Assembly: GCA_944384765.1 (NCBI GenBank)
Contig: CALWUM010000006.1
Location: 17,799-81,798 of the forward strand
Direction of reading: 5' to 3'
Source: an uncultured Agathobaculum sp.
GTDB taxonomy: Bacteria > Bacillota > Clostridia > Oscillospirales > Butyricicoccaceae
DNA length: 64,000 nucleotides
Both the position numbers and the translations under genes were made by a program. The notes beneath the pieces were generated by a model. The model worked only from the letters and a program-made list of their open reading frames with translations, did no database searches and had not been told where the DNA came from. Position 1 is the stretch's first letter. Every line of letters starts with the position of its first letter. Shown here in pieces: positions 3,007 through 59,531 of this stretch.

Positions 3007-4575
3007 TTACCAGCCGAAGAACGGGAACGGGCTCTGGTAGTAGCCGCCGCTACTGCTGTCATCCTGAGTGCTCTGGTTGCTCTCGGTCGCCGGGTCGTCA
3101 CCCTCCAGGTCGTGCGCATCCATGAGCGTTACGGTGATGTTGAGTGTCTTGCCGGTCGAGAGACGGTAAACGGTCAGGGTGATCTTGTCGCCCGCCTGTT
3201 TATTCTCCTTGATCTCGTTGACATCGTCCATGGTCGGGGTCGGCGTACCATCGACTGCCGTGATCACGTCGCCGACCTGCAGGCCTTCGCTCGCCGCTGT
3301 GGCACGCGAGTCAATTGAGTATACCTGTACACCGGCGATGCTGCCATCGGCGGACTCCACATTGCGGCCCGTGATGCCGATAGTCGGACGGCCGCTGACA
3401 TAGCCGTTGGCAATCAGCTCATCGACAACGTCCTTTGCCGTGTTGATCGGGATCGCAAAGCCCATGCCCTCAATCGTGGTGTCACTGTATATACTGCTGG
3501 ACAGTTTAGCCGACGTGATGCCGACCACCTGGCCGTATTTATTGATGAGCGCACCACCCGAGTTGCCCGGGTTGATGGACGCGTCGGTCTGGATCAGGGT
3601 CATGACGCGGTCGTTGATGGTCACGTCGCGGTTGATGGCGGAAATGCGGCCGCCGGTGATCGTGTTGGCAAACTGCACACCGCCGGGCGAACCGATCGTA
3701 TAAGCGTATTCACCGGGTTCGAGGTCGTCCGAATCGCCGAACTCAGCCGGGGTCAGCTCGGTATCCGTGGTCACCTTGATGACCGCAAGGTCGGTCTGCT
3801 CATCCGTGCCGACGATCTCCGCATCCAGCTGGGTGCCGTCGCTCAGCTGAACGGCTACCGCCGTCGCATCCGCGACAACATGGTCGTTGGTGATGATGTA
3901 GCCATCCTTACTCATGATGACGCCCGAGCCACTGCTCGTGCCGCTGTCCATCGAGGCGATGACCGATACAACAGACGGGCTGACCTTCTTGTAGATCTCC
4001 TCGCCTGCCAGGCCGTTGACCACATCGTAGTTATCCGGGTCCAGCTCAGGAGTGTCGCTGATCTCCAGTGTCGGCAGCTCGCCGCTGTCTGTCTCCGCGC
4101 TCGCGCTGACGGCCGCGCCGTCTCCGTCGCCAATCACATGGCCGAGCACCGCGCCGCCTGCAAACAGCAGGCAGGCCGCTGCCACGCAGCACAGGCCGAT
4201 CACAACCGCCTTACCGTGCCCCTTCTTGTGAGGGGGCTGGGCGCCGCCGCCGCTCAGATCGGGCTGCGGCGCGGAATAGAAGGTTTCCGTCCGCGGCGCC
4301 TGGTAATCCGGATGCGCTACCGGCGTCTGATACGGGGTACGCGGCTCCTCACTCTGCGTGGAGGGCTGCTCACCCTGCGCGCCATACGGCTGCTGCGGCT
4401 GCGCTTCCTGCTCTCCCTGCGGGGTAACAGACGGTTCATCCGAGACACGATACGGCGCCTGTGCGGACTGCTGTCCGCTCTCCTGCGGCTGTGCCGCCTG
4501 CTGTGCTTCGGGCTGTTCCATATTGTCATCGCCGCGCGGGGCAGGCGTATAGTTGTTATTATTGAAGTCGTCCAT
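3007..4575 (-). CDS. htrA: HtrA/DegP-family serine protease (S1C) with C-terminal PDZ domain, one TM segment and a Q/P-rich N-terminal region
   Basis: GSGVIMSKDGYIITNDHVV (His region) and NPGNSGGALIN (Ser region). PDZ-like LQVGDVITAVDG. Hydrophobic segment VVIGLCCVAAACLLFAGGAVL. Confidence 0.9.
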   Translation of the reverse strand: MDDFNNNNYTPAPRGDDNMEQPEAQQAAQPQESGQQSAQAPYRVSDEPSVTPQGEQEAQPQQPYGAQGEQPSTQSEEPRTPYQTPVAHPDYQAPRTETFYSAPQPDLSGGGAQPPHKKGHGKAVVIGLCCVAAACLLFAGGAVLGHVIGDGDGAAVSASAETDSGELPTLEISDTPELDPDNYDVVNGLAGEEIYKKVSPSVVSVIASMDSGTSSGSGVIMSKDGYIITNDHVVADATAVAVQLSDGTQLDAEIVGTDEQTDLAVIKVTTDTELTPAEFGDSDDLEPGEYAYTIGSPGGVQFANTITGGRISAINRDVTINDRVMTLIQTDASINPGNSGGALINKYGQVVGITSAKLSSSIYSDTTIEGMGFAIPINTAKDVVDELIANGYVSGRPTIGITGRNVESADGSIAGVQVYSIDSRATAASEGLQVGDVITAVDGTPTPTMDDVNEIKENKQAGDKITLTVYRLSTGKTLNITVTLMDAHDLEGDDPATESNQSTQDDSSSGGYYQSPFPFFGW

Positions 4576-4607: not shown

Positions 4608-4661
4608 ATTGTATTGCCCCATTGTGGCAGTTTGTTGAAAACAATATGAATATTTTTTGAA
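4608..4661 (-). promoter_or_regulatory. htrA promoter: three TTCA hexamers at 11 bp phasing, then N20, then TACAAT
   Basis: Minus-strand hexamers TTCAAA (5' T at 4661), TTCATA (4650) and TTCAAC (4639). Exactly 20 nt separate the last hexamer from TACAAT (4613-4608). No canonical -35 at 17 nt. Confidence 0.6.
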
Positions 4662-4725: not shown

Positions 4726-6186
4726 TTATGCCTGCGGTTTGCTGCCCGGCAGCTGTGCCGGCGCGAGTGGCAGCGTGAACGAGAACTCGGTCTCACCGCC
4801 GTCCGAGCGAACAGCGATCTCGCCGCCATGCAGGTTAATGATGTTTTTAACGATGTACAGCCCCAGCCCCGCACCGGTCTTATCCATCGAGCGCGAGCGG
4901 TCGGCCTTGTAGAATCGGTCGAAGATGTGCGGCAGATCCTCCTCCGAGATCACCGTGCCCGTGTTGCTGATCGAGAACGCACAGAACGTGCCCTCCGGAT
5001 GCGCATGCAGGCACAGGCGGCCGCCGTCATCGATAAACTTGACCGCGTTGTCCACCAGGTTATACACCGCGCGGTACAAGTGGTCGCGGTCGCCCATGAC
5101 CATCAGGCGGTCCTCCAGATCGCACTCGACCGTAAGCTGCTTTTTCTCGATCTTCTGCTCAAAGGACAGCAGGATCTGCGCGGTCATTTCGGAGAAATCC
5201 ATCGGCGCGGGGTTGAGGATCAGCTCGCCCGACTGGATTTTGGCCGCGTCCAGCATACGGTTGACCATGCGGGACAGGCGGCGGGTCTCCTCGGCGATGA
5301 TGTGCAGGTATTTATCCCTCTGGTCCGAGGGGATGGTGCCGTCGATCATGCCATCAACAAAGCCACCGATCGTGGTCATCGGGGTTTTGAACTCGTGGCT
5401 GACGTTGGAGATAAAGCCGCGCGTCAGCTCCTCGAGCTGGTCGAGGTCACGCGCCATGTTGTTGAAGGAGGTTGCCAGCTCGTCGATCTCGTAGCAGTGG
5501 TTGTCCTCGGGTACGCGCACCTCAAAATTGCCCGCAGCAAACTCCTTGGCTGCCGCCGCCATCACCTTAAGCGGCCGCGTCATATGCTGGGACAAAATAA
5601 ACGAGATAATCAGTGCGACCACAAGCGTTACCACCAGGATAAGCACCAGCGTCTGTGTGGAGTGGCGCACCGTGCCGGCCGCGGCGGCATCCTGTGTGTT
5701 GATAAACACCATGGCGGTGATCTGGCCGCTGTCATCCAGCACACTCGTGCCGACCGTGTAGCTTGACTGTGCCCCGATCACGCCCAGCTGGCCGACCTCG
5801 GCATAGCTGCCGGTCTCTCGAACCTGCGCGACCGCGGAAGCGGGCATGGCATACTGACGGTTGTATTCCGCCACCGTGCCGTTTGTGTCTGCCGCCATCT
5901 GGATCACGCCGTCCGCATCGGTCACGCAAACCGAGATAACGTCCTCTTTGGCCACACGGCCGATGGACAGCATAAAGATCTGCCGGATAATGTCCGAATC
6001 CGTGCTTTGCATCAGCTTGGTCTGCTCGGCCAGGCTCTGCACGGTCGTGCGCAGCTCGGCCTGCTTGGAGGCAAGCGCGTAGTTGCTCATCTGATAGTAA
6101 AACACACCGCCCGCCACCGTGAACGCGCATACGATCAGCACCAGATGCGTGACATAATTTTTAAAGAAAAAACTGCGTCTGCCCAT
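4726..6186 (-). CDS. Sensor histidine kinase (two TM segments, periplasmic loop, HAMP, HisKA, HATPase_c)
   Basis: H-box FISNVSHEFKTPMTTI. N/G boxes VDNAVKF and DKTGAGLGLYIVKNIINLHGG. Two hydrophobic segments flank a ~150 aa loop. Confidence 0.9.
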   Translation of the reverse strand: MGRRSFFFKNYVTHLVLIVCAFTVAGGVFYYQMSNYALASKQAELRTTVQSLAEQTKLMQSTDSDIIRQIFMLSIGRVAKEDVISVCVTDADGVIQMAADTNGTVAEYNRQYAMPASAVAQVRETGSYAEVGQLGVIGAQSSYTVGTSVLDDSGQITAMVFINTQDAAAAGTVRHSTQTLVLILVVTLVVALIISFILSQHMTRPLKVMAAAAKEFAAGNFEVRVPEDNHCYEIDELATSFNNMARDLDQLEELTRGFISNVSHEFKTPMTTIGGFVDGMIDGTIPSDQRDKYLHIIAEETRRLSRMVNRMLDAAKIQSGELILNPAPMDFSEMTAQILLSFEQKIEKKQLTVECDLEDRLMVMGDRDHLYRAVYNLVDNAVKFIDDGGRLCLHAHPEGTFCAFSISNTGTVISEEDLPHIFDRFYKADRSRSMDKTGAGLGLYIVKNIINLHGGEIAVRSDGGETEFSFTLPLAPAQLPGSKPQA

Positions 6187-6192
6187 GTGGGT

Positions 6193-6873
6193 TTACTCCT
6201 TGGTTTCAAATTTATAGCCAACGCCCCAGACGGTCTTAAGCTCCCATTTATCCGAAACGCCCTCGAGCTTTTCGCGCAGGCGCTTGACGTGCACATCCAC
6301 CGTACGGGTGTCGCCGAAGTAGTCAAAGCCCCACACGTCATCCAGCAGCTGCGCGCGGGTGAACACGCGATTGGGGCTGGAGGCGAGGTAGTAGAGCAAC
6401 TCGATCTCCTTGGGCGGTGCGTCCACGCGCTTACCCTTGATGACCAGATCATACGCCTGCTTGTCGATCACCAGATTGTCGAACGACAACTTCTCGGGCG
6501 CGTCATCCGGCGCCATGCGGCGGAACACCGCGCGTACGCGCGCGATGACCTCAGGCATTTCCAGGGGCTTGACGATGTAGTCGTCCGCGCCCATCTCCAG
6601 ACCGGAAACGCGGTCTGCGGTCTCGCCCTTGGCGGTGATCATGATAATCGGCACGTCGCTTTCCGCGCGGATCTCCTTGCACACCGTCCAGCCGTCCATG
6701 ACCGGCATCATCACGTCGAGCAGGATCATATCCGGCTTTTCGCTCTTCCACTGCTTGATGCCTTCCACGCCGTTTTCGGCCTCGATCACGGTATAGCCTT
6801 CGCGCTCGAGATACAGCCGCAGCAGTTCGCGGATATTGGCTTCGTCCTCTACGATCAATATTTTCTTGGGCAT
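6193..6873 (-). CDS. OmpR/PhoB-family response regulator (receiver plus winged-helix)
   Basis: KILIVEDEANIRELL...DMILLDVMMPVMDG receiver domain. C-terminal FTRAQLLDDVWG...VDVHVKRLREKL winged helix. Confidence 0.93.
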   Translation of the reverse strand: MPKKILIVEDEANIRELLRLYLEREGYTVIEAENGVEGIKQWKSEKPDMILLDVMMPVMDGWTVCKEIRAESDVPIIMITAKGETADRVSGLEMGADDYIVKPLEMPEVIARVRAVFRRMAPDDAPEKLSFDNLVIDKQAYDLVIKGKRVDAPPKEIELLYYLASSPNRVFTRAQLLDDVWGFDYFGDTRTVDVHVKRLREKLEGVSDKWELKTVWGVGYKFETKE

Positions 6874-6905
6874 GTTATCCCCTGCTTTCCATGTAGTCTG
6901 TTACC

Positions 6906-6948
6906 ATTATACCGCCGTTTTGAAAAAAAAGCATTAACAAACTGTTAA
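6906..6948 (-). promoter_or_regulatory. Response-regulator operon promoter with two phased TTAA hexamers at the same N20 spacing
   Basis: Minus strand: TTAACA (6948-6943), TTAATG (6937-6932), 20 nt spacer, TATAAT (6911-6906). Confidence 0.4.
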
Positions 6949-7018
6949 AGGGTGCATTGTCCGCCCCGGGCGGACGTGCTATAATCAAAACATCCGAGTG
7001 AACGAAAGGGGCACACCC

Positions 7019-11061: not shown

Positions 11062-11114
11062 AACAAAACTCCACAGATTTTGTAAAAAATAAAAAAGGGG
11101 GAAATCAAATCACA

Positions 11115-12809
11115 ATGTGGGAAAGAAAAGAGGTAAAAACGCGCGGAAAGCGCCAATTCCTGCGCAACTGGGCCGCGATGATCGCCGTGTGCTTTCTGCT
11201 TGCCTTCACAGGCGCGGAGTTTTCCGGCACTGCGGATTTCATCAGCGATTTCAATCCAGCCGCTATGCTGCCGGATGACCAGGTCGTCATCCAGCAGGTC
11301 AGCCTGTCCAACTGGGAACTGCTGCTCGAATGGCTGCATATCGACCCAATGGACGGCACACACCCCATGTGGGCTGCGGCCAACCAGAATGTCGGCCCGC
11401 TGTTCGATACCATAACCGCGCCCTTTTCCGCGTTCTTTGCGCTGCTCGAGCGCTCGCAGTTTGCGGGCTGGCTGGATATTGTGCTCGCTGTCGCGGGCAT
11501 GGCGGGCGGCGTGTGGTTCTCGGTCTGGGTGCTGAGCGCACTGACCGTGGGCGCGCGGCGCTTTTTCCTGGAAAGCCGCGTGCGCGACAACATCAGCATC
11601 GCCGCGATGTTCGTCCCGTTCGGCCGGGGGAATTGGTGGAACGTGACCAAGGCCATGCTGCTGCGCGCGGTCTACATGATGTTATGGACCTGCACCATTA
11701 TCGGCTTTCCGATCAAGTATTACGCCTATCGCATGGTGCCGTACCTTCTCGCGGAAAACCCGCACCTGAAGCCCACGGAAGCGATCCTGCTGTCCCGCCG
11801 CATGATGGACGGGAACAAGTGGCGCTGCTTTGTGCTCGACCTGACGCTCTATCTGCACTGGTCGCTCATCCCGACCGTGCTCGCCGCCATGCTCGGCACG
11901 GGCGCCGGCCTGCTCACGGGCAAAATCGTACTGTGCCAGTCGATTGCAACCGTGCTGACCGGCCTGCTCAGCCTGCTGTTTGTCAATGGCTATAAATCCG
12001 CGGTCTATACCGAGCTGTACGTCGCCCTGCGTCAGGCGCAGATCGATGCGGCTGCGCCGCTGGCCGACCGGTTTACGGTTCCGGCCTTCGGCGAAGCCGC
12101 ACCCACCGGCGCAAAGCCGAGCCTGCCGGATGCGGACGTCCATCTGCCCGAGGACCCGGTGTTCCACTTCGCGCAGCACCACAAGCTCAACTACAACCGG
12201 CATTACAGCATCCGCACGCTCATCCTGCTGTTCTTCGCGTTCTCGATCGCAGGCTGGCTGTGGGAGGTCGCGCTGCACATCGTCACCAAGGGTATGTTCG
12301 TCAACCGCGGCACCATGCTCGGCCCCTGGCTGCCGATTTACGGCGCGGGCGGCGCGATTGTGCTGTTCCTGCTCCGGAAGCTGTTCACCAGGCCGGTCGC
12401 GACCTTTTTCGTGTCCATGGTGCTGTGCTCGATCATCGAATACTTCACCAGCTGGTATCTGGAGTTCACCAAGGGTATCCGCTGGTGGGATTACAGCGGC
12501 TATTTCATGAACCTGAACGGCCGCATCTGCCTGGAGGGCGCGGTCACGTTCGGCCTCGCCTGCTGCGCGGTCGTCTATTTTGCCGGACCGCTGCTCGGCG
12601 GGCTGATCGACAAGCTCTCCCCCGCCAAGCAGAACACCATCTGCGCCGTGCTGATCGCGCTGTTCGCGGCGGACGCCGTGTATTCGCACTTCCACCCGAA
12701 CGAAGGCGCGGGCATCACGGATTACAACGACTGGCAGCCGCAGGACGGCGGCAGCCAGCCCGCAGCCGAAGCGGCACTCAGTGCTTCCACTGCTCCCAGA
12801 CACGGGTGA
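11115..12809 (+). CDS. Polytopic membrane protein, apparent fusion of a DUF975-like N-terminal half and a CmpB-like (putative ABC-transporter type IV) C-terminal half
   Basis: N-terminus MWERKEVKTRGKRQFLRNWAAMI resembles DUF975. The C-terminal half (IAGWLWEVALHIV...GPWLPIYGAGG) resembles Pfam ABC_trans_CmpB. Many hydrophobic segments. Confidence 0.7.
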   Translation: MWERKEVKTRGKRQFLRNWAAMIAVCFLLAFTGAEFSGTADFISDFNPAAMLPDDQVVIQQVSLSNWELLLEWLHIDPMDGTHPMWAAANQNVGPLFDTITAPFSAFFALLERSQFAGWLDIVLAVAGMAGGVWFSVWVLSALTVGARRFFLESRVRDNISIAAMFVPFGRGNWWNVTKAMLLRAVYMMLWTCTIIGFPIKYYAYRMVPYLLAENPHLKPTEAILLSRRMMDGNKWRCFVLDLTLYLHWSLIPTVLAAMLGTGAGLLTGKIVLCQSIATVLTGLLSLLFVNGYKSAVYTELYVALRQAQIDAAAPLADRFTVPAFGEAAPTGAKPSLPDADVHLPEDPVFHFAQHHKLNYNRHYSIRTLILLFFAFSIAGWLWEVALHIVTKGMFVNRGTMLGPWLPIYGAGGAIVLFLLRKLFTRPVATFFVSMVLCSIIEYFTSWYLEFTKGIRWWDYSGYFMNLNGRICLEGAVTFGLACCAVVYFAGPLLGGLIDKLSPAKQNTICAVLIALFAADAVYSHFHPNEGAGITDYNDWQPQDGGSQPAAEAALSASTAPRHG

Positions 12810-18579: not shown

Positions 18580-19020
18580 CTACTTGATCTCCTCGACCGG
18601 GATCTGCTTTAAGATCTCAACCGGGCCGCAGCCGGCGCACTTGGCGCAGTCGTGCATGCAGGCCATCGGGTCGTCCGGGTCCTCCTCGCGGCCGATCTCG
18701 AGCAGGGTTGGGTCGCCCTGCTTTTCGCCGACGATGAACTTGGCCACCGCCTCCTCGGGCGAGCCTTCGCAGCCCGGCACGAGCACCAGGCCGATCATCT
18801 CGAGCGCATTGCGGATGGCAAGGCCGAGCGAGCCGCAGATCAGCACATCGAGCTTTTCCATGCTCGCCAGCTTGATCAGATCGGTTGTGCTGTCGCCCTG
18901 CACCGCAGCCAGGCGCTTGCCGGTGGGCTCCCTGCCCTCCACGGTGACGATCATGACCGTCTTGCAGCTACCCAGATTGGACGCAATCTGCCCGTTTTCG
19001 TATGCAACACCAATGTTCAT
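18580..19020 (-). CDS. NifB/NifX-like (dinitrogenase Fe-Mo cofactor biosynthesis domain) protein with a Cys-rich tail
   Basis: MNIGVAYENGQI...VLICGSLGLAIRNALEMIGL resembles the Nitro_FeMo-Co domain. C-terminal CMHDCAKCAGCG. Overlaps the upstream Mrp-like gene by 4 nt. Confidence 0.7.
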   Translation of the reverse strand: MNIGVAYENGQIASNLGSCKTVMIVTVEGREPTGKRLAAVQGDSTTDLIKLASMEKLDVLICGSLGLAIRNALEMIGLVLVPGCEGSPEEAVAKFIVGEKQGDPTLLEIGREEDPDDPMACMHDCAKCAGCGPVEILKQIPVEEIK

Positions 19021-19835
19021 CGCAATGCCTCCACAGCCTGCATCGCGCCCGCGAGCGCGTCCGGCAGCTTAACGTCCTCGATCTTGCCTGCGTCAACCGC
19101 CTCGGCCAGCTTGGGATCGATCGGCAGCTTGGCCAGCACGGACAGGTTGTACTGCGCGGCAACCTCGTCCAGGTGGCTTTCGCCAAACACCGAAATATGC
19201 TTGCCGCAGTCCGGGCACTCGAGATAGCTGTAATTCTCGACCACGCCGATCAGCGGGATATTCATCATCTGCGCCATCTTGACCGCCTTGCCCACGATCA
19301 TGGACACCAGATCCTGCGGCGAGGTGACAACCAGGATGCCATCCACCGGCAGGGACTGGAATACAGTCAGCGGCACGTCGCCGGTTCCGGGAGGCATATC
19401 GACAAACAGGAAGTCCACATCGTCCCATACCACGTCCGACCAGAACTGCTTGACAGTCTCCGCAATGATCGGGCCGCGGTAGATGACCGGGTCATCCTCA
19501 TTCGGCAGCACCAGATTGATCGAAACCATCTGCACACCGCCCTCGCTGCGCGCGGGCAGGATGCCGGCCTCGCAGCCCTCGAGCTTGTCGTGCACGCCGA
19601 AGGTCTTGGGGATGGACGGGCCGGTGATGTCCGCGTCCAGCACGCCGCAGGTGTAGCCCTTGCGGGTCATGCCGACCGCCAGCATCGAGGTGAGCAGGCT
19701 TTTGCCCACGCCGCCCTTGCCGGACACCACGCCGATGACTTTGCGAACCGTTGCCGCGGGGTTAGCCGCGACCTTGAGGCTTTTTTCGCCGCCGCAGCCC
19801 GCCGAACACGAATCGCAGTTATGCGAACAACCCAT
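19017..19835 (-). CDS. Mrp/NBP35/ApbC-family Fe-S cluster carrier ATPase
   Basis: Deviant Walker A VVSGKGGVGKS and CxxC motif CPDCG. N-terminal Cys cluster CSHNCDSCSAGCGG. AGGAG lies 9 nt upstream of ATG 19835. Confidence 0.88.
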   Translation of the reverse strand: MGCSHNCDSCSAGCGGEKSLKVAANPAATVRKVIGVVSGKGGVGKSLLTSMLAVGMTRKGYTCGVLDADITGPSIPKTFGVHDKLEGCEAGILPARSEGGVQMVSINLVLPNEDDPVIYRGPIIAETVKQFWSDVVWDDVDFLFVDMPPGTGDVPLTVFQSLPVDGILVVTSPQDLVSMIVGKAVKMAQMMNIPLIGVVENYSYLECPDCGKHISVFGESHLDEVAAQYNLSVLAKLPIDPKLAEAVDAGKIEDVKLPDALAGAMQAVEALR

Positions 19836-19875
19836 AGTTAACAACTCCTAACATATCTTTTCTCGTCTGTCTCTA

Positions 19876-20049: not shown

Positions 20050-20073
20050 CGAGGGCGTGCGCCTCGTTTTTTT
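20050..20073. terminator. Hairpin terminator closing the sRNA array region
   Basis: CGAGGGC-gugc-GCCUCG flanked by an A-run and a T-run. Minus-strand reading is followed by GAUUUUGUG. Confidence 0.55.
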
Positions 20074-20154
20074 ACAAGAATGTGTTTTTGTGGGCCGCGC
20101 GCGGCAGAACCCGTCGGGCGGCATCTCTATGCTTGCGATACCTGCGCCAAAGCC

Positions 20155-20299
20155 GCAATGCAAAGCGCCGCTGCCCGTTGGGGGAAACGGGACAGCGGCG
20201 CTTTGCCGATTCACTACACAGATTTGAAAAAGGGGGGTAAAAGAGAAATAAAAGATCGGTTGGCTTGCCAGCTGCGGGATTGCGGCTTCCCTTGCTGAC
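20155..20299 (-). ncRNA. Array unit 5: candidate sRNA
   Basis: Promoter TTCACA (20359) / TTCAAA (20348) / TTCACA (20337), N20, TATACT (20311-20306). P1 GUCAGC/GCUGGC (one G-U). Same inner hairpin and C/U tract. Hairpin 20161-20205. Confidence 0.6.
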
Positions 20300-20396
20300 G
20301 TATTCAGTATACCCCAGCGCCGCCCGATATGTGTGAACAGATTTTGAATAGCCTGTGAAAGATTTGTTGCGTTTAAAACCACAGGCAGCTGCACAC

Positions 20397-20535
20397 AGGG
20401 AAGCGCCCTGTTTCCCATACAGGAAACAGGGCGCAAACCATGCAAAATGAAAAAGAGGGTAAAAAGAAAAGGTGAAAGAAAGAAAACAAAGTGTAAAAGG
20501 AGTTCGCCGGAGGGAAGGTGTTTTTCCCTTCCGAC
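20397..20535 (-). ncRNA. Array unit 4: divergent variant sRNA
   Basis: Promoter TTCAAA (20595) / TTCAAG (20584) / TTCACA (20573), N20, TATACT (20547-20542). P1 GUCGG/CCGGC. Inner hairpin AGGGAA-aaacacc-UUCCCU. Longer, different C/U tract. Hairpin 20403-20434. Confidence 0.55.
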
Positions 20536-20624
20536 AATGATAGTATACCGTATCCTGCCCACTTAATTGTGAACGATTCTTGAACATACTTTGAAAGGTT
20601 TTTTACAAATCCCGCGCCTGTCCG

Positions 20625-20768
20625 GATACGGCAGGGCGCCCCGCTCCATAGGGGGATGGAACCGGGGCGCCCTGCTGTCATTCACAAAATAGAAAAAAGG
20701 GGGGTAAAAGAGAAATAAAAGATCGGTTGGCTGTCTGCCGACTTGGGATTGCGGCTTCCCTCATCGAC
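20625..20768 (-). ncRNA. Array unit 3: candidate sRNA
   Basis: Promoter TTCAAA (20828) / TTCAAA (20817) / TTCACA (20806), N20, TATACT (20780-20775). P1 GUCGA/UCGGC (one G-U). Same inner hairpin and C/U tract. Hairpin 20631-20675. Confidence 0.6.
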
Positions 20769-20854
20769 ATACTTAGTATACCGCACAAAACGGCCGGATT
20801 TGTGAACCGTTTTTGAACAGTCTTTGAAGGTTTTTTGACCGTGGTTTCCCCGAC

Positions 20855-20995
20855 CGGACAGGAAAACACCCCGGCTGTGCAGCAGCTGCAAAACCAGGGT
20901 GTTTTCTGTCATTTCACAATTATAGAGGGGGTAAAAAAGAGAAAAAAGATCGGTAGGCTGTCTGCCGGTTTAGGATTGCGGCTTCCCTCACCGGC
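20855..20995 (-). ncRNA. Array unit 2: candidate sRNA
   Basis: Promoter TTCAAA (21055) / TTTACG (21044) / TTCACA (21033), N20, TATACT (21007-21002). P1 GCCGGU/ACCGGC. Inner hairpin GGGAAGCCGCAAUCCU (G-U only on the minus-strand reading). C/U tract, then hairpin 20861-20906. Confidence 0.6.
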
Positions 20996-21079
20996 ATTTT
21001 CAGTATACGCCTGGAGCGACAGATAAGTGTGAACGGGACGTAAACAGACTTTGAAAGGTTTGTGACCCGGCCCGCACGG

Positions 21080-21221
21080 GAACGGGAAAGCGCCCCGGTC
21101 CGTGGGGGAAACGGAACCGGGGCGCTTTCTGTCATTTCACAAAATAAAAAGGGGGGTAAAAGAGAAATAAAAAGATCGGTAGGCTGTTTGTCGGTTCGGG
21201 ATTGCGGCTTCCCTTATCGAC
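21080..21221 (-). ncRNA. Array unit 1: candidate ~140 nt sRNA
   Basis: Promoter TTCACA (21281) / TTCAAA (21270) / TTCATA (21259), N20, TATACT (21233-21228). RNA has P1 UGUCG/CGACA around AGGGAAGCCGCAAUCCC, then tract CUUUUUAUUUCUCUUUUACCCCCCUUUUU, then hairpin 21086-21129. Confidence 0.6.
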
Positions 21222-21289
21222 ATGCTTAGTATACCCCATTTCCCCGCCGAGTATATGAACAAAATTTGAACGGCCTGTGAAAGAATTGT

Positions 21290-22294
21290 TTACAATTCCC
21301 GCTGCTGCCGTTTTTTGATCAGACGGATGTCGTCCCCGAAAAAGCGCAGCGCCATAAACTCGCCCAGCAGGCGCGAGGCGACTGCTGGCGAATACTTTTC
21401 GCTCAGCGTTTCGGGCAGCAGGTTGGTGTTGATAATCATGGGGCGCCCGGCCATCAGGCGGGTGTTGATCAGGTTATACAGCGCGGACACCGTGAACGCT
21501 GTCCCCATCTCGGTTCCCATATCGTCGATAATCAGCAGATCGGCGCGCTCATACCGCGCTGCGCGCTCAGCGGCCGCCGCGCCGTCACCGCTGCCGAATT
21601 TGATGGTCTCATACGCCGCAACGATGTTGATTGCCGTGTCGTACGCGACCGAAAACCCGCGTTCGGACACTGCTTCGGCGATGCAGGTAGACAAAAAGGT
21701 TTTCCCCAGGCCGGTCGAGCCATACAGCAGCAGATTGGGCGAATGCTTGCCGAAATGCGCGGCATACGCCTTGCACTCGTCCAGGTTGTACTCCATGTTC
21801 TCGCGCGGGGACACGCCCAACCGCGCGTCCGGCCGGGCGGAATAGTAATCCATGTTGAACCGGCCGAAATTCTGATCCTGAATCGGCAGCACGGTCGACA
21901 GCTGCTCCTTGAGCAGCCGGGCATAGCGCGCCTTGACACAGTCGCAGGTGGCGCTGCCCTGATAGCCCGTATCCCCGCACTTGGGGCAGGCGGGCTTATC
22001 GGTCAGGTAATCCGCAGGCAGGCCAAGCTGCCCGAGCAGGGACGCCCGCTCGCGCTGCAGGGACTGGTTGCGCTCGCGCAGGCGGCTGATTGCCGCCTCG
22101 GGGTCGCCGCCCGATTTGAGCGCTGCGCTCAGCACGGCCGCTGCGGTGGAGGACAGCTCGCGGTCGATCGCGCGGATACGCGGCTCACGCGCGTAAACCG
22201 CGTGCCGGCGCTCCTCGATCTCGTCCGCGCGGGCGGTGCGCTCACGCTCGAGTTCACGCCGCGCGGCGGCAAGCAGCTTTTTATCGTATGCCAT
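21290..22294 (-). CDS. DnaC/DnaI-like AAA+ helicase-loader ATPase with an N-terminal zinc-ribbon
   Basis: Walker A LLYGSTGLGKTFL, Walker B LLIIDDMG, and CPKCGDTGY...CDC zinc-ribbon. Confidence 0.8.
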   Translation of the reverse strand: MAYDKKLLAAARRELERERTARADEIEERRHAVYAREPRIRAIDRELSSTAAAVLSAALKSGGDPEAAISRLRERNQSLQRERASLLGQLGLPADYLTDKPACPKCGDTGYQGSATCDCVKARYARLLKEQLSTVLPIQDQNFGRFNMDYYSARPDARLGVSPRENMEYNLDECKAYAAHFGKHSPNLLLYGSTGLGKTFLSTCIAEAVSERGFSVAYDTAINIVAAYETIKFGSGDGAAAAERAARYERADLLIIDDMGTEMGTAFTVSALYNLINTRLMAGRPMIINTNLLPETLSEKYSPAVASRLLGEFMALRFFGDDIRLIKKRQQREL

Positions 22295-22297
22295 GGC

Positions 22298-23224
22298 TTA
22301 TCCCTCCGATTTGCGGCGGTGGTTTTTGACACGCGCCGCCCAGTCCTGCTCCCATGCGGCGAGGGTCGCGCTGTCGGTCGGCTGTGCGGCGGTCTGCCCG
22401 ACCGCTGCCCGGGTCTCAGGCTCGAGCGCGGTGATCTCGCTGACCGTATGTACCCCGCTCTCGTCCCAGCGGCGCAGGATGCCAAGCGTGTAATCCAGAC
22501 TCTTGTGTCCCTGGTGCTTGTCCGTGCGCGCAGCGGCCAGCGCGACCGCCTCAGGCGGGAACCCGTGTGCGAGTGCGAACCGGCACACGCGCTGTTCTTT
22601 GGGCGCGGGCTGGGCGGGGTCCGCGCCGAGCGCCTTGTAGACCGCCTCGCTGAGCGGCTTTTCGCTGACCCGGCGGGACAGATAATCCTGCGCATCCTGC
22701 GCATTCCGGATGCCCATATCCGCCCACTGGTACGCCTCGCGGCGTAGATCCGCCAGACGCACAGTACCTTTCTCCCGCTTGAGATAGCTCAGCAGCTCGA
22801 TGATCGCCGCGGCCGACAGGCCGAGGTGATCGTAGGCAGTCAGCAGGCAGCGCAGCTGCCCTTCGGTCAGCGTGCGGCCGAGCACGCCCTCTGCGCTCGC
22901 GCATACGCCGGCAAAATCCTTATCATCCAGCCGCGCGCGGCGCAGCTCGTCCGCTGTGTACTGCGGGGCGGCATCGGGCTTGTCCTCTTTTTTCGGCTGC
23001 ACCGGTGCGGTGAGCTGATTGAGCGTGAACGCGGCGCGCTCATACCGCTCCGCTGACAGGTGCAGCGCCCGCGCTGCCGCTTTGCCGTCCGCCGCGCCGC
23101 CGTGGCGCAGGACATACAGATACAGCAGCGCCGCGTCGCCGTCGCCGACCGCGATCAGCTTGTCCAGCGTATCGCAGCGCGCGACGCGCAACTCGCCTTC
23201 CGGCAGCACAACAGTGGTGGGCAT
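22298..23224 (-). CDS. DnaD-domain replication initiation / primosome protein
   Basis: Paired with and immediately upstream of the DnaC/DnaI-like ATPase (3 nt gap). Repeated helical DnaD/DnaB-C-like segments (LSYLKREKG..., LDYTLGILRRW). Call rests mainly on context. Confidence 0.65.
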   Translation of the reverse strand: MPTTVVLPEGELRVARCDTLDKLIAVGDGDAALLYLYVLRHGGAADGKAAARALHLSAERYERAAFTLNQLTAPVQPKKEDKPDAAPQYTADELRRARLDDKDFAGVCASAEGVLGRTLTEGQLRCLLTAYDHLGLSAAAIIELLSYLKREKGTVRLADLRREAYQWADMGIRNAQDAQDYLSRRVSEKPLSEAVYKALGADPAQPAPKEQRVCRFALAHGFPPEAVALAAARTDKHQGHKSLDYTLGILRRWDESGVHTVSEITALEPETRAAVGQTAAQPTDSATLAAWEQDWAARVKNHRRKSEG

Positions 23225-26057: not shown

Positions 26058-26221
26058 GCAGTTTGCGCGTTTTCTTTGCACGCTTTTTCGGGTATTTTGA
26101 CCAGATTTTACGAGATTTTTTAGTGCATTTGTCGAATTGCCCAATTATGAACAAACTGTGAACGGGATTTTGTCAATTTTTCATCTTGTCTCTACAAGTC
26201 GAGCGGTGCTATAATTTAGCC

Positions 26222-40218: not shown

Positions 40219-40399
40219 CGCGCCGCAGGCGCGCTTTTGATAGAGAATTGCGGTATACCGCAATTCTCATCCAAAGTCAGGACATGTGCCTGACTTTGGA
40301 TACCCCGACCCAGCCGCCTTGGGCGGCGTCCGGGGGTATCGGCAACAGGTTTCTTTGGAACCTGTTGCCGTATATAGGGGGTATGGATACCCCCTATAC
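40219..40399 (-). repeat. Six-hairpin intergenic repeat module, copy 2 (reverse orientation)
   Basis: Hairpins at 40373-40398, 40341-40369, 40299-40340, 40271-40299, 40243-40268 and 40219-40236. The reverse complement aligns with 97-274. Starts 1 nt after the priA stop and ends at the GNAT RBS. Confidence 0.8.
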
Positions 40400-42853
40400 T
40401 CACAAATCCGGGTTCTGATCCGCAAACACACTCACCCCGCGGTTTTTGCTGTCCAGCATGAACTCGCGGATGACGCCCGCAATCAGCGCGCGCCAGCGCG
40501 CGGTATCCGCCGCGCGCATGGTCAGGTGGTAGCGGTAGCGCCCCATCACTTTGACCACCTGCGCCGCCGCCGGGCCGAGCACAGGCGCTTTGACGTCCGC
40601 ATACTGTCCTTCCATCAGGCTTTGCAGCCGGGTTTTGAGCGCGATCAGACTTTTGAGTACCTGCTGCTCGACCTCACCCACCGCAGTCAGCACGGTCAGC
40701 CCACATACGGGCGGACACTGGAGCGCCTGCCGCGTCTCGATCTCGCGCGCGTAAAACGCCTCGTAGTCCTGCCGTGCCGCGGCAAGGATGACCGGATGCG
40801 TCGGGCTGTACGTCTGGATGACTGCCTTGCCCTTGTCAAACCGCCGGCCCGCGCGCCCAACCACCTGGGTGATGAGCGAAAACGTGCGCTCGCGCGCGCG
40901 GTAGTCCTGCGCATACAGGCTCTGGTCTGCGTCCAACACGCCCACAAGCGTGACGTTCTCAAAATCCAGCCCCTTGGTCACCATCTGGGTGCCGAGCAGG
41001 ATATCCGCCTCGCCCTTGGCGAACTGGCTGAGCAGCTTTTCGTGCGCACCCTTGGTGTGCATGCTGTCCGCGTCCATGCGCAGCACGCGCGCGGACGGGA
41101 ACCGGTCGTGCAGCTCCTGCTCGACCTTTTGCGTGCCCGGCGTTTCGGTAAACAGACTCTCCCCGCCGCACACCGGGCACTTGCCCGTGATCTTGATCGA
41201 CGCGCCGCAGTAGTGGCACATCGCCCGGCCGGACACCGAGTGATAGGTCATGGTCGTCGAGCACGAGGGGCACTCAGGCACCCAGCCGCACAGCGCGCAG
41301 CCGATCACCCGGCTGTTGCCGCGCCGGTTGAGAAACAGAATGGCCTGCCGGCCGCGCGTGAGCGTGTCGATCAGCTCGCTTTCCAGCTGCGGGCCGATCA
41401 CGCCCTCGCGCCCTTCGCGGGCGAGGCCGCGCATATCCGCAATCACCACATCGGGCAGGCTGGTGCCGAGAAAGCGCTCGGTCAGCCGGAACACCGGGTA
41501 TTTGCCCTGTTTCGCGCCGTAATACGTCTCGACCGACGGAGTCGCCGAGCCGAGCACAAGCAGCGCGTTCTGCTGGCTGACAATGTATTTGGCCACGTCG
41601 CGCGCATGGTAGCGCGGCGACTGCTCGGAGCGGTAGGCGCCGTCCTGCTCCTCGTCGATGATGAGCACGCCGAGGTTTTCCACCGGCGCGAACACCGCCG
41701 AGCGCGTGCCAATCACGACGCGCGCGCGGCCGGATTTGATCTTTTTGAAGCTGTCATACCGCTCGCCCACCGAAAGCGCCGAGTGCATGACCGCGACCTC
41801 GTCCCCGAACTGGGCGGCGAACTGCCGCAGCACCTGGGGTGTCAGCCCAATCTCAGGCACGAGCACGATCGCGCTTTTGCCCATCGCAAGCGCCTTTTCG
41901 ATCAGCTTGAGGTAGACCTGGGTCTTTCCGCTGCCGGTCACGCCGAACAGCAGCGCGGCGCGCGGCCCATTTTCGTCCATGAGCGCGGCAATGCCGTCAA
42001 ACACCTGCTGCTGCGCCGCGGAGAGCACCGGGGACGCGGCCTTGGGCACCTCGGAAAAGTCCGGTGTGCGCAGCCGCTCCTCATAATGCTCGCGCAAGAT
42101 GCCTTTTTTGACCATGTCGCGCAGCGCGGCGTCGCTGACGCCGGTCATATAAACCAGCTCTTTCTGGCTCATCCAGCCACCGTCCCCCAGCACCGAGACG
42201 ACATCCATCCGGGCGGGGCTGCGGCGGCTGATGCGTGCCATGGCCTCATTCGCCTCCATGTCCAGCGAGAGCATTTTTTCGGTTTTATCGTTTGATTTCT
42301 GCGTGGTGTTGCTGTGATAGGTCAGCACACCCTCGCCCGCGAGCGCATCCAGCACGCGGGTGACGCTTTTGCCGCCCAGCCGCTGCCGGATGTCGGACAC
42401 CGCAAGCGTCTGCCCTGGCCGATCGAACAGCGCGAGCACCGCGCCCGCCTCGTCCTCGCGCTGCCGCAGGGCGGCGAGGTCGGCGTCCGGCGCGAGGGTA
42501 TAGGTCTCGTGCCGCCGGAACCACAGCCCGGCGGGCAGCATGACGCGCACGCAGTCGAAATAGGTGCAGTACAGCCGCTCGCGCATCCACGCGGCGAGCT
42601 TAAGCTGCCCATGCGTGAGCACGGGCGCGTCGTCGAGCACCTCGACCACGGGTTTGAGCTTGTATTCGCCCGTGTCCTGCCGGAACGCGAGCACGACCGC
42701 TTCCGCCCGTTTATTGCCAAAGCCGAACGGCACGAGAACACGGGTGCCAATCTGCACCTGTTCCCGCAGCTCGTCCGGCACACGGTAGGAATATAGCTTG
42801 TCGATCGCATAGGTCGCCGCATCCACGGCGACCGCGCAGACTGTTTCCGCCAA
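40400..42853 (-). CDS. priA: Primosomal protein N' (replication restart helicase PriA)
   Basis: Walker A GVTGSGKT, DEEQD box and zinc-binding CxxC pairs (CALCGWVPECPSC...CHYCG...CPVCG). Confidence 0.93.
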   Translation of the reverse strand: MAETVCAVAVDAATYAIDKLYSYRVPDELREQVQIGTRVLVPFGFGNKRAEAVVLAFRQDTGEYKLKPVVEVLDDAPVLTHGQLKLAAWMRERLYCTYFDCVRVMLPAGLWFRRHETYTLAPDADLAALRQREDEAGAVLALFDRPGQTLAVSDIRQRLGGKSVTRVLDALAGEGVLTYHSNTTQKSNDKTEKMLSLDMEANEAMARISRRSPARMDVVSVLGDGGWMSQKELVYMTGVSDAALRDMVKKGILREHYEERLRTPDFSEVPKAASPVLSAAQQQVFDGIAALMDENGPRAALLFGVTGSGKTQVYLKLIEKALAMGKSAIVLVPEIGLTPQVLRQFAAQFGDEVAVMHSALSVGERYDSFKKIKSGRARVVIGTRSAVFAPVENLGVLIIDEEQDGAYRSEQSPRYHARDVAKYIVSQQNALLVLGSATPSVETYYGAKQGKYPVFRLTERFLGTSLPDVVIADMRGLAREGREGVIGPQLESELIDTLTRGRQAILFLNRRGNSRVIGCALCGWVPECPSCSTTMTYHSVSGRAMCHYCGASIKITGKCPVCGGESLFTETPGTQKVEQELHDRFPSARVLRMDADSMHTKGAHEKLLSQFAKGEADILLGTQMVTKGLDFENVTLVGVLDADQSLYAQDYRARERTFSLITQVVGRAGRRFDKGKAVIQTYSPTHPVILAAARQDYEAFYAREIETRQALQCPPVCGLTVLTAVGEVEQQVLKSLIALKTRLQSLMEGQYADVKAPVLGPAAAQVVKVMGRYRYHLTMRAADTARWRALIAGVIREFMLDSKNRGVSVFADQNPDL

Positions 42854-52843: not shown

Positions 52844-53006
52844 ATATTCACCTGTCCTGTGTCGTTTGCCTTCCTTATTGATTGGGGAGACAGGGATTTT
52901 TCCGCAGTCAACACCGCATAATTCCGCTCGCGCGGGATTATGCGGTGTTGATATACATTATACTATCACAAATCCGCCCCGGTGTATAGCGGATTGCGGC
53001 ATCTAT

Positions 53007-59380: not shown

Positions 59381-59531
59381 GGTGCGCCTCCGATCTTTTT
59401 TCTTTATCCCTGAAAATATACATAGCGATTATAGTCTCTTGTCGGACAAATTGCAAGATGTATCTATGGGAAATTAGCGGACTATTAACACGGTTTTGCC
59501 GCAAATCCAAAACTTTTTCAGAGTAAACAGC

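Follow-up and report, generated by a model that had tools for sequence, protein, structure and literature searches.

In Streptococcus, htrA and five csRNAs are under the control of CiaR, which acts as an activator at NTTAAG-N5-TTTAAG, located 10 nt from the -10 element (PMC3091779). In Listeria monocytogenes, LisRK is required for the multicopy small RNAs (sRNAs) LhrC1-5 (PMC4132741), and evidence for htrA regulation has been reported (PMC12826053); in Bacillus subtilis, both htrA and htrB are activated by CssRS, which is encoded beside an htrA paralogue (PMC12826053). In this study, we analysed a 64-kb stretch of DNA from an uncultured Agathobaculum sp. (contig CALWUM010000006.1; hereafter the window), the minus strand of which carries a tandem array of five promoter-to-hairpin units directly downstream of a dnaI-like gene. 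The array probably represents a new sRNA family, missing from Rfam and of a known kind, namely siblings under the control of an envelope-stress two-component system.

The array resembles the csRNAs (ccnA-E), where an OmpR-family system activates htrA and several paralogous sRNAs of ~90-150 nt, and where hexamer direct repeats with 11-bp periodicity lie just upstream of the -10 element in promoters that lack a -35 element (PMC3091779). Further likenesses are a copy number that differs by species and pyrimidine stretches with complementarity to translation-initiation regions. A putative activator site shared with htrA is also found in the window (4608-4661), as co-occurrence of sites rather than as binding. 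In contrast, the boxes of the array are three TTCAMA repeats rather than NTTAAG-N5-TTTAAG, so that they do not qualify as CiaR promoters, and they lie 20 nt instead of 10 nt from the -10 element (9 nt in the AT-rich relatives described below). The two share no sequence similarity, Rfam gives no match, the host of the array belongs to the Clostridia (Oscillospirales), and all array copies stand in one tandem block at a fixed position after dnaI.

LhrC carries C-rich motifs in loops, in single strand and in the terminator loop, which bind Shine-Dalgarno regions (PMC4132741). Like LhrC, the array is multicopy, places C-rich sequence both in a single-stranded stretch and in the terminator loop, and is predicted to depend on an envelope-stress two-component system. 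However, no sequence or covariance-model similarity is detectable, the 5' hairpin loop of the array lacks the UCCC motif (UCCC being the 3' side of its stem P2), and the array tract, U-rich and ~55 nt in length, far exceeds that of LhrC; because the LisR box has not been defined, promoters do not enter this comparison.

The C-rich regions of RoxS/RsaE bind G-rich Shine-Dalgarno regions, and CCCCUUUGUU is duplicated in RoxS (PMC4409812). RsaE/RoxS (RF01820, Bacillales) and the array both have C-rich sequence followed by U-runs in unpaired regions (ACCCCCCUUUAUUUU in the array), and both would answer to an OmpR-family regulator. Several exposed C-rich regions are present in the array family as well, with ACCCCCC in the unpaired tract and C-runs in 73 of 85 3' hairpins. 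RsaE was the only sRNA model that recurred, weakly but at full length, in a permissive cmscan of four divergent units, the match being centred on UUUCUC...CCCCUUU.UUU and the terminator. With 19.8 bits for unit 1 and 15.8, 18.0 and 20.4 bits for units from loci L040, L044 and L098 (E 0.13-1.8), the gathering score of 79 was not reached, and the match is a resemblance, not membership. Secondary structures differ, and RoxS, unlike the array, is single-copy, controlled by ResD/Rex and tied to redox rather than to htrA.

As in the window, CssRS is a two-component system encoded beside an HtrA-type protease gene. The CssR box, quoted as TTTTCACA in a passage of PMC6749698 that cites Darmon et al. 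(2002), resembles the array boxes (C/T)TTTCA(C/A)A and GTTCACA. In that quoted form, 6-7 of its 8 positions are found in boxes CTTTCACA, TGTTCACA and CGTTCAAA across all five units and htrA. We know of no Bacillus sRNA that has been placed in the CssRS regulon.

Organization and RNA-level conservation of the array

The array begins 1 bp past the stop codon of the dnaI-like gene (21290) and ends near 20140. Its units, 227-236 bp each, are arranged head to tail with a mean column identity of 71% (alignment A1). An nhmmer profile of the units matched exactly these five places in the window; Tandem Repeats Finder reported a 227-bp period with 2.5 copies only, because unit 4 has diverged. The features are as follows.

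20140-21290, minus strand: whole array of five putative sRNA units in the order A-A-A-B-A (alignment A1, nhmmer)
21080-21281, minus strand: unit 1, type A; boxes 21254-21281, -10 TATACT 21228-21233, 5' hairpin (P1+P2) 21189-21222, unpaired C/U tract 21130-21188, 3' GC hairpin 21086-21129 with loop UUUCCCCCA
20855-21055, minus strand: unit 2, type A; boxes 21028-21055, -10 21002-21007, 5' hairpin 20963-20996 with P2 closed by a G-U pair, C/U tract 20911-20962, 3' hairpin 20857-20910
20625-20828, minus strand: unit 3, type A; boxes 20801-20828, -10 20775-20780, 5' hairpin 20736-20769, C/U tract 20679-20735, 3' hairpin 20628-20678 with loop UCCCCCUA
20395-20595, minus strand: unit 4, type B; boxes 20568-20595, -10 20542-20547, 5' hairpin 20504-20537, C/U tract 20444-20503 with UUUCACCUUUUCUUUUUACCCUCUUUUUCAU, 3' hairpin 20395-20443
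20156-20359, minus strand: unit 5, type A of a last-unit subtype ending in ...CCCCCCUUUUUCAAAUCUGUGUAGUGAAU; boxes 20332-20359, -10 20306-20311, 5' hairpin 20267-20299, C/U tract 20207-20266, 3' hairpin 20160-20206 with loop UUUCCCCCAA

A first-pass annotation, made from the sequence alone, had described five such units on the minus strand, and all the parts that it listed are present in alignment A1 and in minimum free energy (MFE) folds. The promoter block with its invariant TATACT occurs at all five units, and the P1 helices vary in sequence and pair in every unit exactly as it had proposed. What it had missed is that the promoter block consists of three direct repeats, TTCA(A/C)A with 11-bp spacing, and that most of the 3' hairpin loops contain a C-run. 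The pattern TTCAMA-N5-TTYAM-N6-TTCAYA matches five times in the 64 kb, always in the array, with a chance expectation of 0.00. Between the boxes and the invariant (G)TATACT (at 21233, 21007, 20780, 20547 and 20311) lies a spacer of 20 nt, G+C-rich and not conserved, and there is no -35 element at 17 bp.

The 5' hairpin starts 5-7 nt past TATACT and is two-tiered, with an outer stem P1 of 5-7 bp around a 4-bp P2 (GGGA/UCCC), which closes an 8-nt loop, AAGCCGCAA. The inner hairpin opens with AGGGAA; four units had been credited with one and the same inner-hairpin sequence, and we found the exact 17-mer AGGGAAGCCGCAAUCCC in three (1, 3 and 5), unit 2 having a C-to-U change at the end that gives a G-U pair and unit 4 a different loop. 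The C/U tract, earlier put at 30-50 nt, measures 50-60 nt, is predicted to be unpaired and in type A reads CCUACCGAUCUUUUAUUUCUCUUUUACCCCCCUUU. It is followed by the long hairpin of 14-20 bp, G+C-rich and unit-specific as noted before, with loops that are mostly a C-run of UUCCCCCA type. Whole predicted transcripts have folding z-scores of -4.9 to -7.2 against dinucleotide shuffles (MFE folds). The array comprises several homologous non-coding genes, each with a predicted promoter and terminator hairpin. A terminator scan called none of the 3' hairpins, though they are strong; none is followed by a U-run of at least 5, the tails having only ~3 U (GCGCUUUCC). U-tails are present in relatives L040 and L042 and in the AT-rich sRNAs.

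The 5' hairpin shows RNA-level covariation. Across 38 distinct type-A 5' ends, aligned with MAFFT and not fitted to structure, 96.8% of cells are paired under the P1+P2 model and 5 of 10 pairs have changes on both sides. Double-compensatory cells number 39, compared with 11.0 +/- 3.5 in shuffles, a count reached in 0 of 500 shuffles, and sliding the 3' partners by 1-3 columns lowers pairing to 24-53%. The signal comes largely from two recurrent alleles, GUCGAU/AUCGAC and GUCAGC/GCUGAC; other paired combinations are GCCGGU/ACCGGC, GUCGAC/GUCGGC and GGAA/UUCC, and type-B helices pair too. This contradicts a DNA-level element without structure-preserving substitutions, which the annotation had named as what would overturn its reading. 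Its argument for a minus-strand RNA also holds among the homologues, since G-U and U-G pairs are common on this strand, whereas a plus-strand RNA would have A-C mismatches.

Homologues, which the annotation had proposed to seek together with copy-number variation, were indeed found, in 1 to 5 copies. A scan of one genome per GTDB species with the pattern GGGAAGCCGCAATCC-N10-30-CCGATC gave about 28 loci, almost all of which belong to the genus Agathobaculum (Oscillospirales), together with chance matches elsewhere. In Agathobaculum, about 27 genomes have arrays, of 3-5 units each: 19 loci have three units, 5 have four, and five are found in this window only. Four further loci show a single unit, owing to cuts at the locus or contig end or, in L010, to an interruption past the first unit. 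The slot is constant (pnp-dnaD-dnaI, array, mrp-nifX-like), the usual order is A-B-A, and the middle type-B tract, UUUCACCUUUUCUUUUUACCCUCUUUUUCAUUUUGCAUUGG, recurs in other species. The type-A tract is near-invariant, with ACCGATCTTTT in 57, TTTCTCTTTT in 58 and TTTTACCCCC in 56 of 59 units, while the adjoining DnaI protein is only 75-93% identical. The box consensus over 86 units is TTCAnAGnnnGTTnAAAnnnTnTTCACA.

Contigs with a DnaI 62-72% identical carry one unit directly past dnaI. Its boxes and TATACT are those of the arrays, its P1 is AUCAGC/GCUGAU, and it contains the motif UUUUACCCCCC...UUUAUUUUGUGAAGAAUGCG; this unit is kept while the downstream gene varies (Metallophos, HAD, PTS EIIB). 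Since distant relatives have this single dnaI-linked unit, the sRNA-dnaI linkage is old and the tandem amplification specific to Agathobaculum. Two contigs carry unexpected labels. L010, binned as 'Candidatus Bacteroides intestinigallinarum', has an Agathobaculum-like pnp-dnaD-dnaI and first unit followed by unrelated AT-rich sequence, and L038, labelled Coprococcus eutactus, bears a complete array of Agathobaculum type; in both cases, misbinning or a chimeric assembly is the probable cause.

In every relative examined, the upstream neighbour of the locus is the dnaD-like and dnaI-like pair (21290-23224).

22298-23224, minus strand: dnaD-like gene with a DnaB_2 domain (Pfam, NCBIfam)
21290-22294, minus strand: dnaI/helicase-loader-like AAA+ gene (Pfam, NCBIfam)

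Further upstream lie rpsO and pnp, and downstream lies an Mrp/ApbC-type Fe-S carrier gene with its own promoter, TTGCGA-17-TATACT (19904-19876). Between unit 5 and this promoter, a short GC hairpin at 20050-20066, flanked on both strands by A-runs and T-runs, looks like a bidirectional terminator. The MrpORP-like carrier is split in two open reading frames (ORFs; 18580-19844, minus strand) with overlapping stop and start, a ParA/NUBPL ATPase (19017-19844) and a Nitro_FeMo-Co protein (18580-19020), both of which match a single NCBIfam model, NF041136. Elsewhere in the window, at 40335-40415 and 52900-52985 on the plus strand, TATACT is followed by (C/AT)CACAAATCCG, each preceded by a hairpin-forming palindrome; these sites may belong to a further small repeated element, either a promoter or an RNA.

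The Rfam search suggested by the annotation, which had not recognised a described family, found none either: Rfam 15 (4227 models) gave zero matches at the gathering threshold for the whole window and eight related loci, a result that covers csRNA and LhrC only if they are among those models. Permissive scans returned only chance-level matches and the weak RsaE match. In the literature, we found no regulatory RNAs described for Agathobaculum and related butyrate producers.

The promoter design shared with htrA and its candidate regulator

When the three-box pattern was searched with two substitutions allowed in 394 kb (the 64-kb window and 8-kb loci), the sole match outside the arrays was the promoter of an htrA gene in the window (4634-4661, minus strand).

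4608-4661, minus strand: htrA promoter of sRNA-like architecture; TTCAAA-N5-TTCATA-N5-TTCAAC (4634-4661), exactly 20 nt, TACAAT (4608-4613)
3007-4575, minus strand: HtrA/DegP-family serine protease gene (Trypsin_2 and PDZ, Pfam), the presumed co-regulated protein member
4726-6873, minus strand: OmpR-family two-component system directly upstream of htrA (Pfam)
6193-6873, minus strand: response regulator gene of this system (Pfam)
4726-6186, minus strand: HAMP/HisKA histidine kinase gene of this system (Pfam)

Markov simulations gave 0.003 such box triplets per window by chance and none with a -10 element, and the htrA promoter is conserved in three orthologous metagenome loci (L047-L049). Helically phased hexamers that replace the -35 element are a hallmark of activation by OmpR/PhoB-family response regulators. 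The htrA-adjacent system lies 14 kb from the array. Its response regulator matches generic NCBIfam models only, with MtrA, PhoB and YycF below threshold, and the nearest solved structures are RegX3, MtrA and BaeR. Because the htrA and sRNA promoters share their design and three published systems run parallel, we infer that it is a CssRS/CiaRH/LisRK-like stress sensor that would drive htrA and all five sRNA genes. ResD and PhoP/WalR, considered on the basis of their consensus sites, gave way to a CssR-like regulator in view of the match at the htrA promoter and of the CssR box in the literature, and a two-component system near the L040 sRNA was rejected as an orthologue of this regulator (27% identity).

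Several observations touch on these promoters. The response-regulator gene has its own promoter at 6890-6960 (minus strand), TTAACA-N5-TTAATG-N5-TTTTCA, ~10 nt and TATAAT, which looks like a degenerate version of the boxes and may reflect autoregulation as in Bacillus cssRS. A two-box match, TTCACAgtttgTTCATA, at 26146-26162 (minus strand), ~240 nt upstream of rpsO, has no convincing -10 element at 20 nt. In other high-G+C Clostridia (L054, L063, L065, L074, L077, L115), htrA begins tens of bases past a histidine-kinase gene with no recognisable boxes, which suggests that operons of a two-component system and htrA are widespread in Clostridia.

A metagenome scan for HtrA relatives provided many distant HtrA loci with AT-rich DNA (35-48% HtrA identity, 25-29% G+C, uncultured gut Firmicutes); one HtrA protein cluster from these is named 'Clostridiaceae bacterium'. 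Directly past htrA and on the same strand, 38 of 51 such AT-rich loci have a putative sRNA gene of ~90 nt (loci ranging over L055-L124, e.g. L098:4487-4640 and L080:4879-5030). Its layout is TTCACT-N5-TTCACA, 20 nt, TAAAAT and a 5' hairpin, AAUCAGUA...UACUGAUU, in which 84% of cells are paired, with 12 double-change cells against 3.5 expected. Past the hairpin come AAAAUAAAA-AACAUCCCC-UUUUAUUUU, with a C-run that can be presented in a loop, and a terminator with a proper U-tail; CAUCCCCUUUUAUUUU is invariant. The box pair is found upstream of the sRNA in 34 of 38 loci and at the htrA promoter position in 34 of 38, where repeats of TTTTCACA type, the CssR box as quoted in the passage mentioned above, lie 9 nt from the -10 element, with exact TTTTCACA-N3-TTTTCACA. 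No Rfam family matched these sRNAs, and an nhmmer profile of 59 Agathobaculum-type transcripts found no match at E <= 10 in 80 HtrA loci. Homology detectable in the sequence of the two was therefore rejected, what they have in common being the boxes and a short motif, CCCCUUU(U)AUUUU. The AT-rich sRNAs have the same regulatory design and are possibly distant homologues of the Agathobaculum family.

Candidate targets and competing explanations

Among the leaders of 57 genes in the window, that of trkA is the best partner of CAGCCUACCGAUCUUUUAUUUCUC, the type-A segment with the highest conservation (-22.9 kcal/mol, z = -4.3), the next-best leader having -16.4 and the background -10.6 +/- 2.9 kcal/mol. 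The predicted duplex, GCCU(A)CCGAUCUUUU with AAAAGAUCGG-AGGC, spans the trkA Shine-Dalgarno sequence.

59385-59404, minus strand: candidate target site in the trkA leader, over the Shine-Dalgarno sequence, AAGAAAAAAGAUCGGAGGCG, complementary to the type-A seed GCCU(A)CCGAUCUUUU

The conserved seed, given here as GCCUACCGAUCUUUU or GCCUACCGAUCUUUUAUUUCUC, is thus predicted to pair with the trkA ribosome-binding site, with GCCUACCGAUC and GAUCGGAGGC as segments of the pairing. Five orthologous trkA leaders (TrkA 73-85% identical) gave -23.0, -17.5, -18.5, -18.8 and -20.3 kcal/mol; each score was reached by <=3% of shuffled leaders, and their sum by 0 of 500 shuffled seeds. In 2 of the 5 orthologues the complementary block, GAAAUAAAGAUCG, is shifted 15-16 nt upstream of the Shine-Dalgarno sequence and kept. 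This conservation is suggestive and not conclusive because trkA leaders are homologous, and we regard trkAH as a tentative target of the type-A seed, with a likelihood somewhat below even. The second seed, UUUUACCCCCCUUUAUUUUGUGAA, which is the longer invariant part of the tract, and the type-B tract have no outstanding target among the window leaders. The neighbouring genes mrp, nifX-like, dnaD and pnp, as well as htrA, were rejected as targets (z ~0, 2-23 orthologous leaders each). A DUF975/CmpB-like membrane protein gene (11115-12809) has AAAAUAAAAAAGGGGGAAA in its leader at 11086-11101 (plus strand), which comes close to full complementarity with CCCCCCUUUUUAUUUU of unit 1 and makes this leader a possible second target. 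L080 likewise has a CmpB-like gene in the vicinity of htrA and the sRNA.

We consider it probable that the units form a new family of a known kind, namely base-pairing sibling sRNAs that belong to a CssRS/CiaRH/LisRK-like stress regulon. Several points weigh against this. Promoters and transcript ends are predictions, and with such weak terminators, termination may be leaky, so that the array could be read through or processed from a longer precursor. The regulator cannot be assigned to CssR by sequence, and its putative link to the array comes from one shared promoter architecture and adjacency. The AT-rich sRNAs may be analogous only, and the complementarity shared by trkA leaders could, since they are homologous, be partly inherited for another reason. 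The annotation had likened the C/U tracts to the anti-Shine-Dalgarno end of 16S rRNA and suggested that they occlude ribosome-binding sites. The trkA leader, with its complementarity conserved across species, speaks for this idea, which otherwise has no statistical support because the real tracts were no better than shuffled C/U sequences against the 57 window leaders (mean -10.1 vs -10.9 kcal/mol).

The same lack of a general preference for ribosome-binding sites would suit an alternative in which the RNAs are real and serve mainly as decoys that titrate a protein, C/U single-strand binders such as KhpA/B (KH-domain), PNPase, cold-shock proteins, S1 or Hfq being candidates. Multiple copies and several C/U motifs per RNA would increase binding capacity, and ~45 nt of the tract is near-invariant across species, which exceeds a typical seed length. 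RsmY/Z and CsrB, to which the copy number and repeated motifs bear a likeness, are protein-sponge RNAs. However, no candidate protein has been identified, the complementarity to the trkA leader is specific and conserved, and the nearest analogues of the same anatomy, LhrC, csRNAs and RoxS, act by base pairing (PMC4132741, PMC3091779, PMC4409812), all of which leaves the decoy reading improbable. It is very improbable that the units act in cis, as 3' untranslated or terminator modules of dnaD-dnaI or as a long structured mrp leader that is processed into pieces. No terminator lies between the dnaI stop codon and unit 1, and the weak U-tails make read-through plausible, but a conserved promoter precedes each unit, mrp is served by a separate one past the extra terminator-like hairpin (20050-20066), distant relatives retain the unit in front of different genes, and the mrp and dnaD leaders have no complementarity to the sRNA seeds.

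A function in DNA, with fifteen regulator boxes that titrate or buffer the regulator or insulate dnaD-dnaI from mrp and with transcripts as by-products, would account for the boxes being the best-conserved part across unit types and for a locus that always abuts dnaI with no terminator between them. We consider it highly improbable, as the transcribed part is as strongly conserved as the boxes, single-unit relatives retain the full design of promoter, hairpin, tract and terminator, and P1/P2 pairing is kept through compensatory changes and G-U pairs, which makes sense for RNA only. A replication origin or iterons, prompted by the dnaD/dnaI neighbours, were rejected on the same RNA-level covariation, and because the boxes are not DnaA boxes and there is no skew switch. 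A mobile element, phage or plasmid origin was also rejected: the array had no matches in phage and plasmid collections (blastn) or in IMG/VR (pattern scan), and its neighbours are chromosomal housekeeping genes. Finally, units 1-3 have an ATG 5 nt past TATACT and can be read as ORFs of 25-30 codons starting MS(I/M)REAAI..., as if they encoded small hydrophobic peptides on leaderless mRNAs. This reading has next to no probability, since units 4 and 5, like many homologues, have TTG or ACG in place of ATG, and the frame shifts among close homologues through linker and T-run indels of 1, 2 or 4 nt. The statement of the annotation that no credible ORF exists holds because array-crossing ORFs have a GC3 of 0.47-0.58, compared with 0.70-0.86 in 57 plausible genes of the window (61.6% G+C), and protein-coding units were rejected on this and on their unconserved frames and start codons.

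Proposed mechanism and significance

In the scheme that we favour, that of sibling base-pairing sRNAs, each of the five paralogous genes would yield a trans-acting sRNA of ~140 nt from its own activator-dependent promoter, in which three boxes spaced by 11 bp stand in for the -35 element, followed by 20 nt and TATACT. The OmpR-family response regulator encoded beside htrA would bind these boxes, and htrA and the sRNAs would be induced together under secretion or envelope stress. The two-tier hairpin at the 5' terminus would probably shield the transcript end, leaving the ~55-nt unstructured C/U region and the C-run of the 3' hairpin loop exposed. These regions would pair with purine-rich translation-initiation regions and block ribosome binding; in particular, the target of the most conserved seed, GCCUACCGAUCUUUUAUUUCUC, would be the trkAH mRNA for K+ uptake, at its Shine-Dalgarno region.

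A wider reading, which we find rather doubtful, is that the array is one branch of an ancient Firmicutes-wide module, in which one or more C-rich sRNAs are always driven by the envelope/secretion-stress two-component system that controls HtrA (a CssRS = CiaRH = LisRK lineage). The Agathobaculum siblings, the AT-rich htrA-adjacent sRNA, csRNAs, LhrC and perhaps RsaE-like RNAs would then belong to a single diverged class with a CCCCUUU-type seed. If this were true, the sRNA arm would be a general and overlooked half of the secretion-stress response, tied to K+ homeostasis.

In summary, this array is a first sRNA lead for the Agathobaculum group, offering a testable family, a likely regulator, a likely partner in HtrA and a candidate target in trkAH. 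Agathobaculum and related butyrate producers are common gut commensals and are studied as live biotherapeutics. The combination of a two-component system with HtrA and multicopy C-rich sRNAs, as in streptococci and Listeria, appears in Clostridia too, in two unrelated sequence forms, which points to either deep conservation or repeated convergence. The shared box may serve as a simple handle for further regulon members in complete genomes of these groups.

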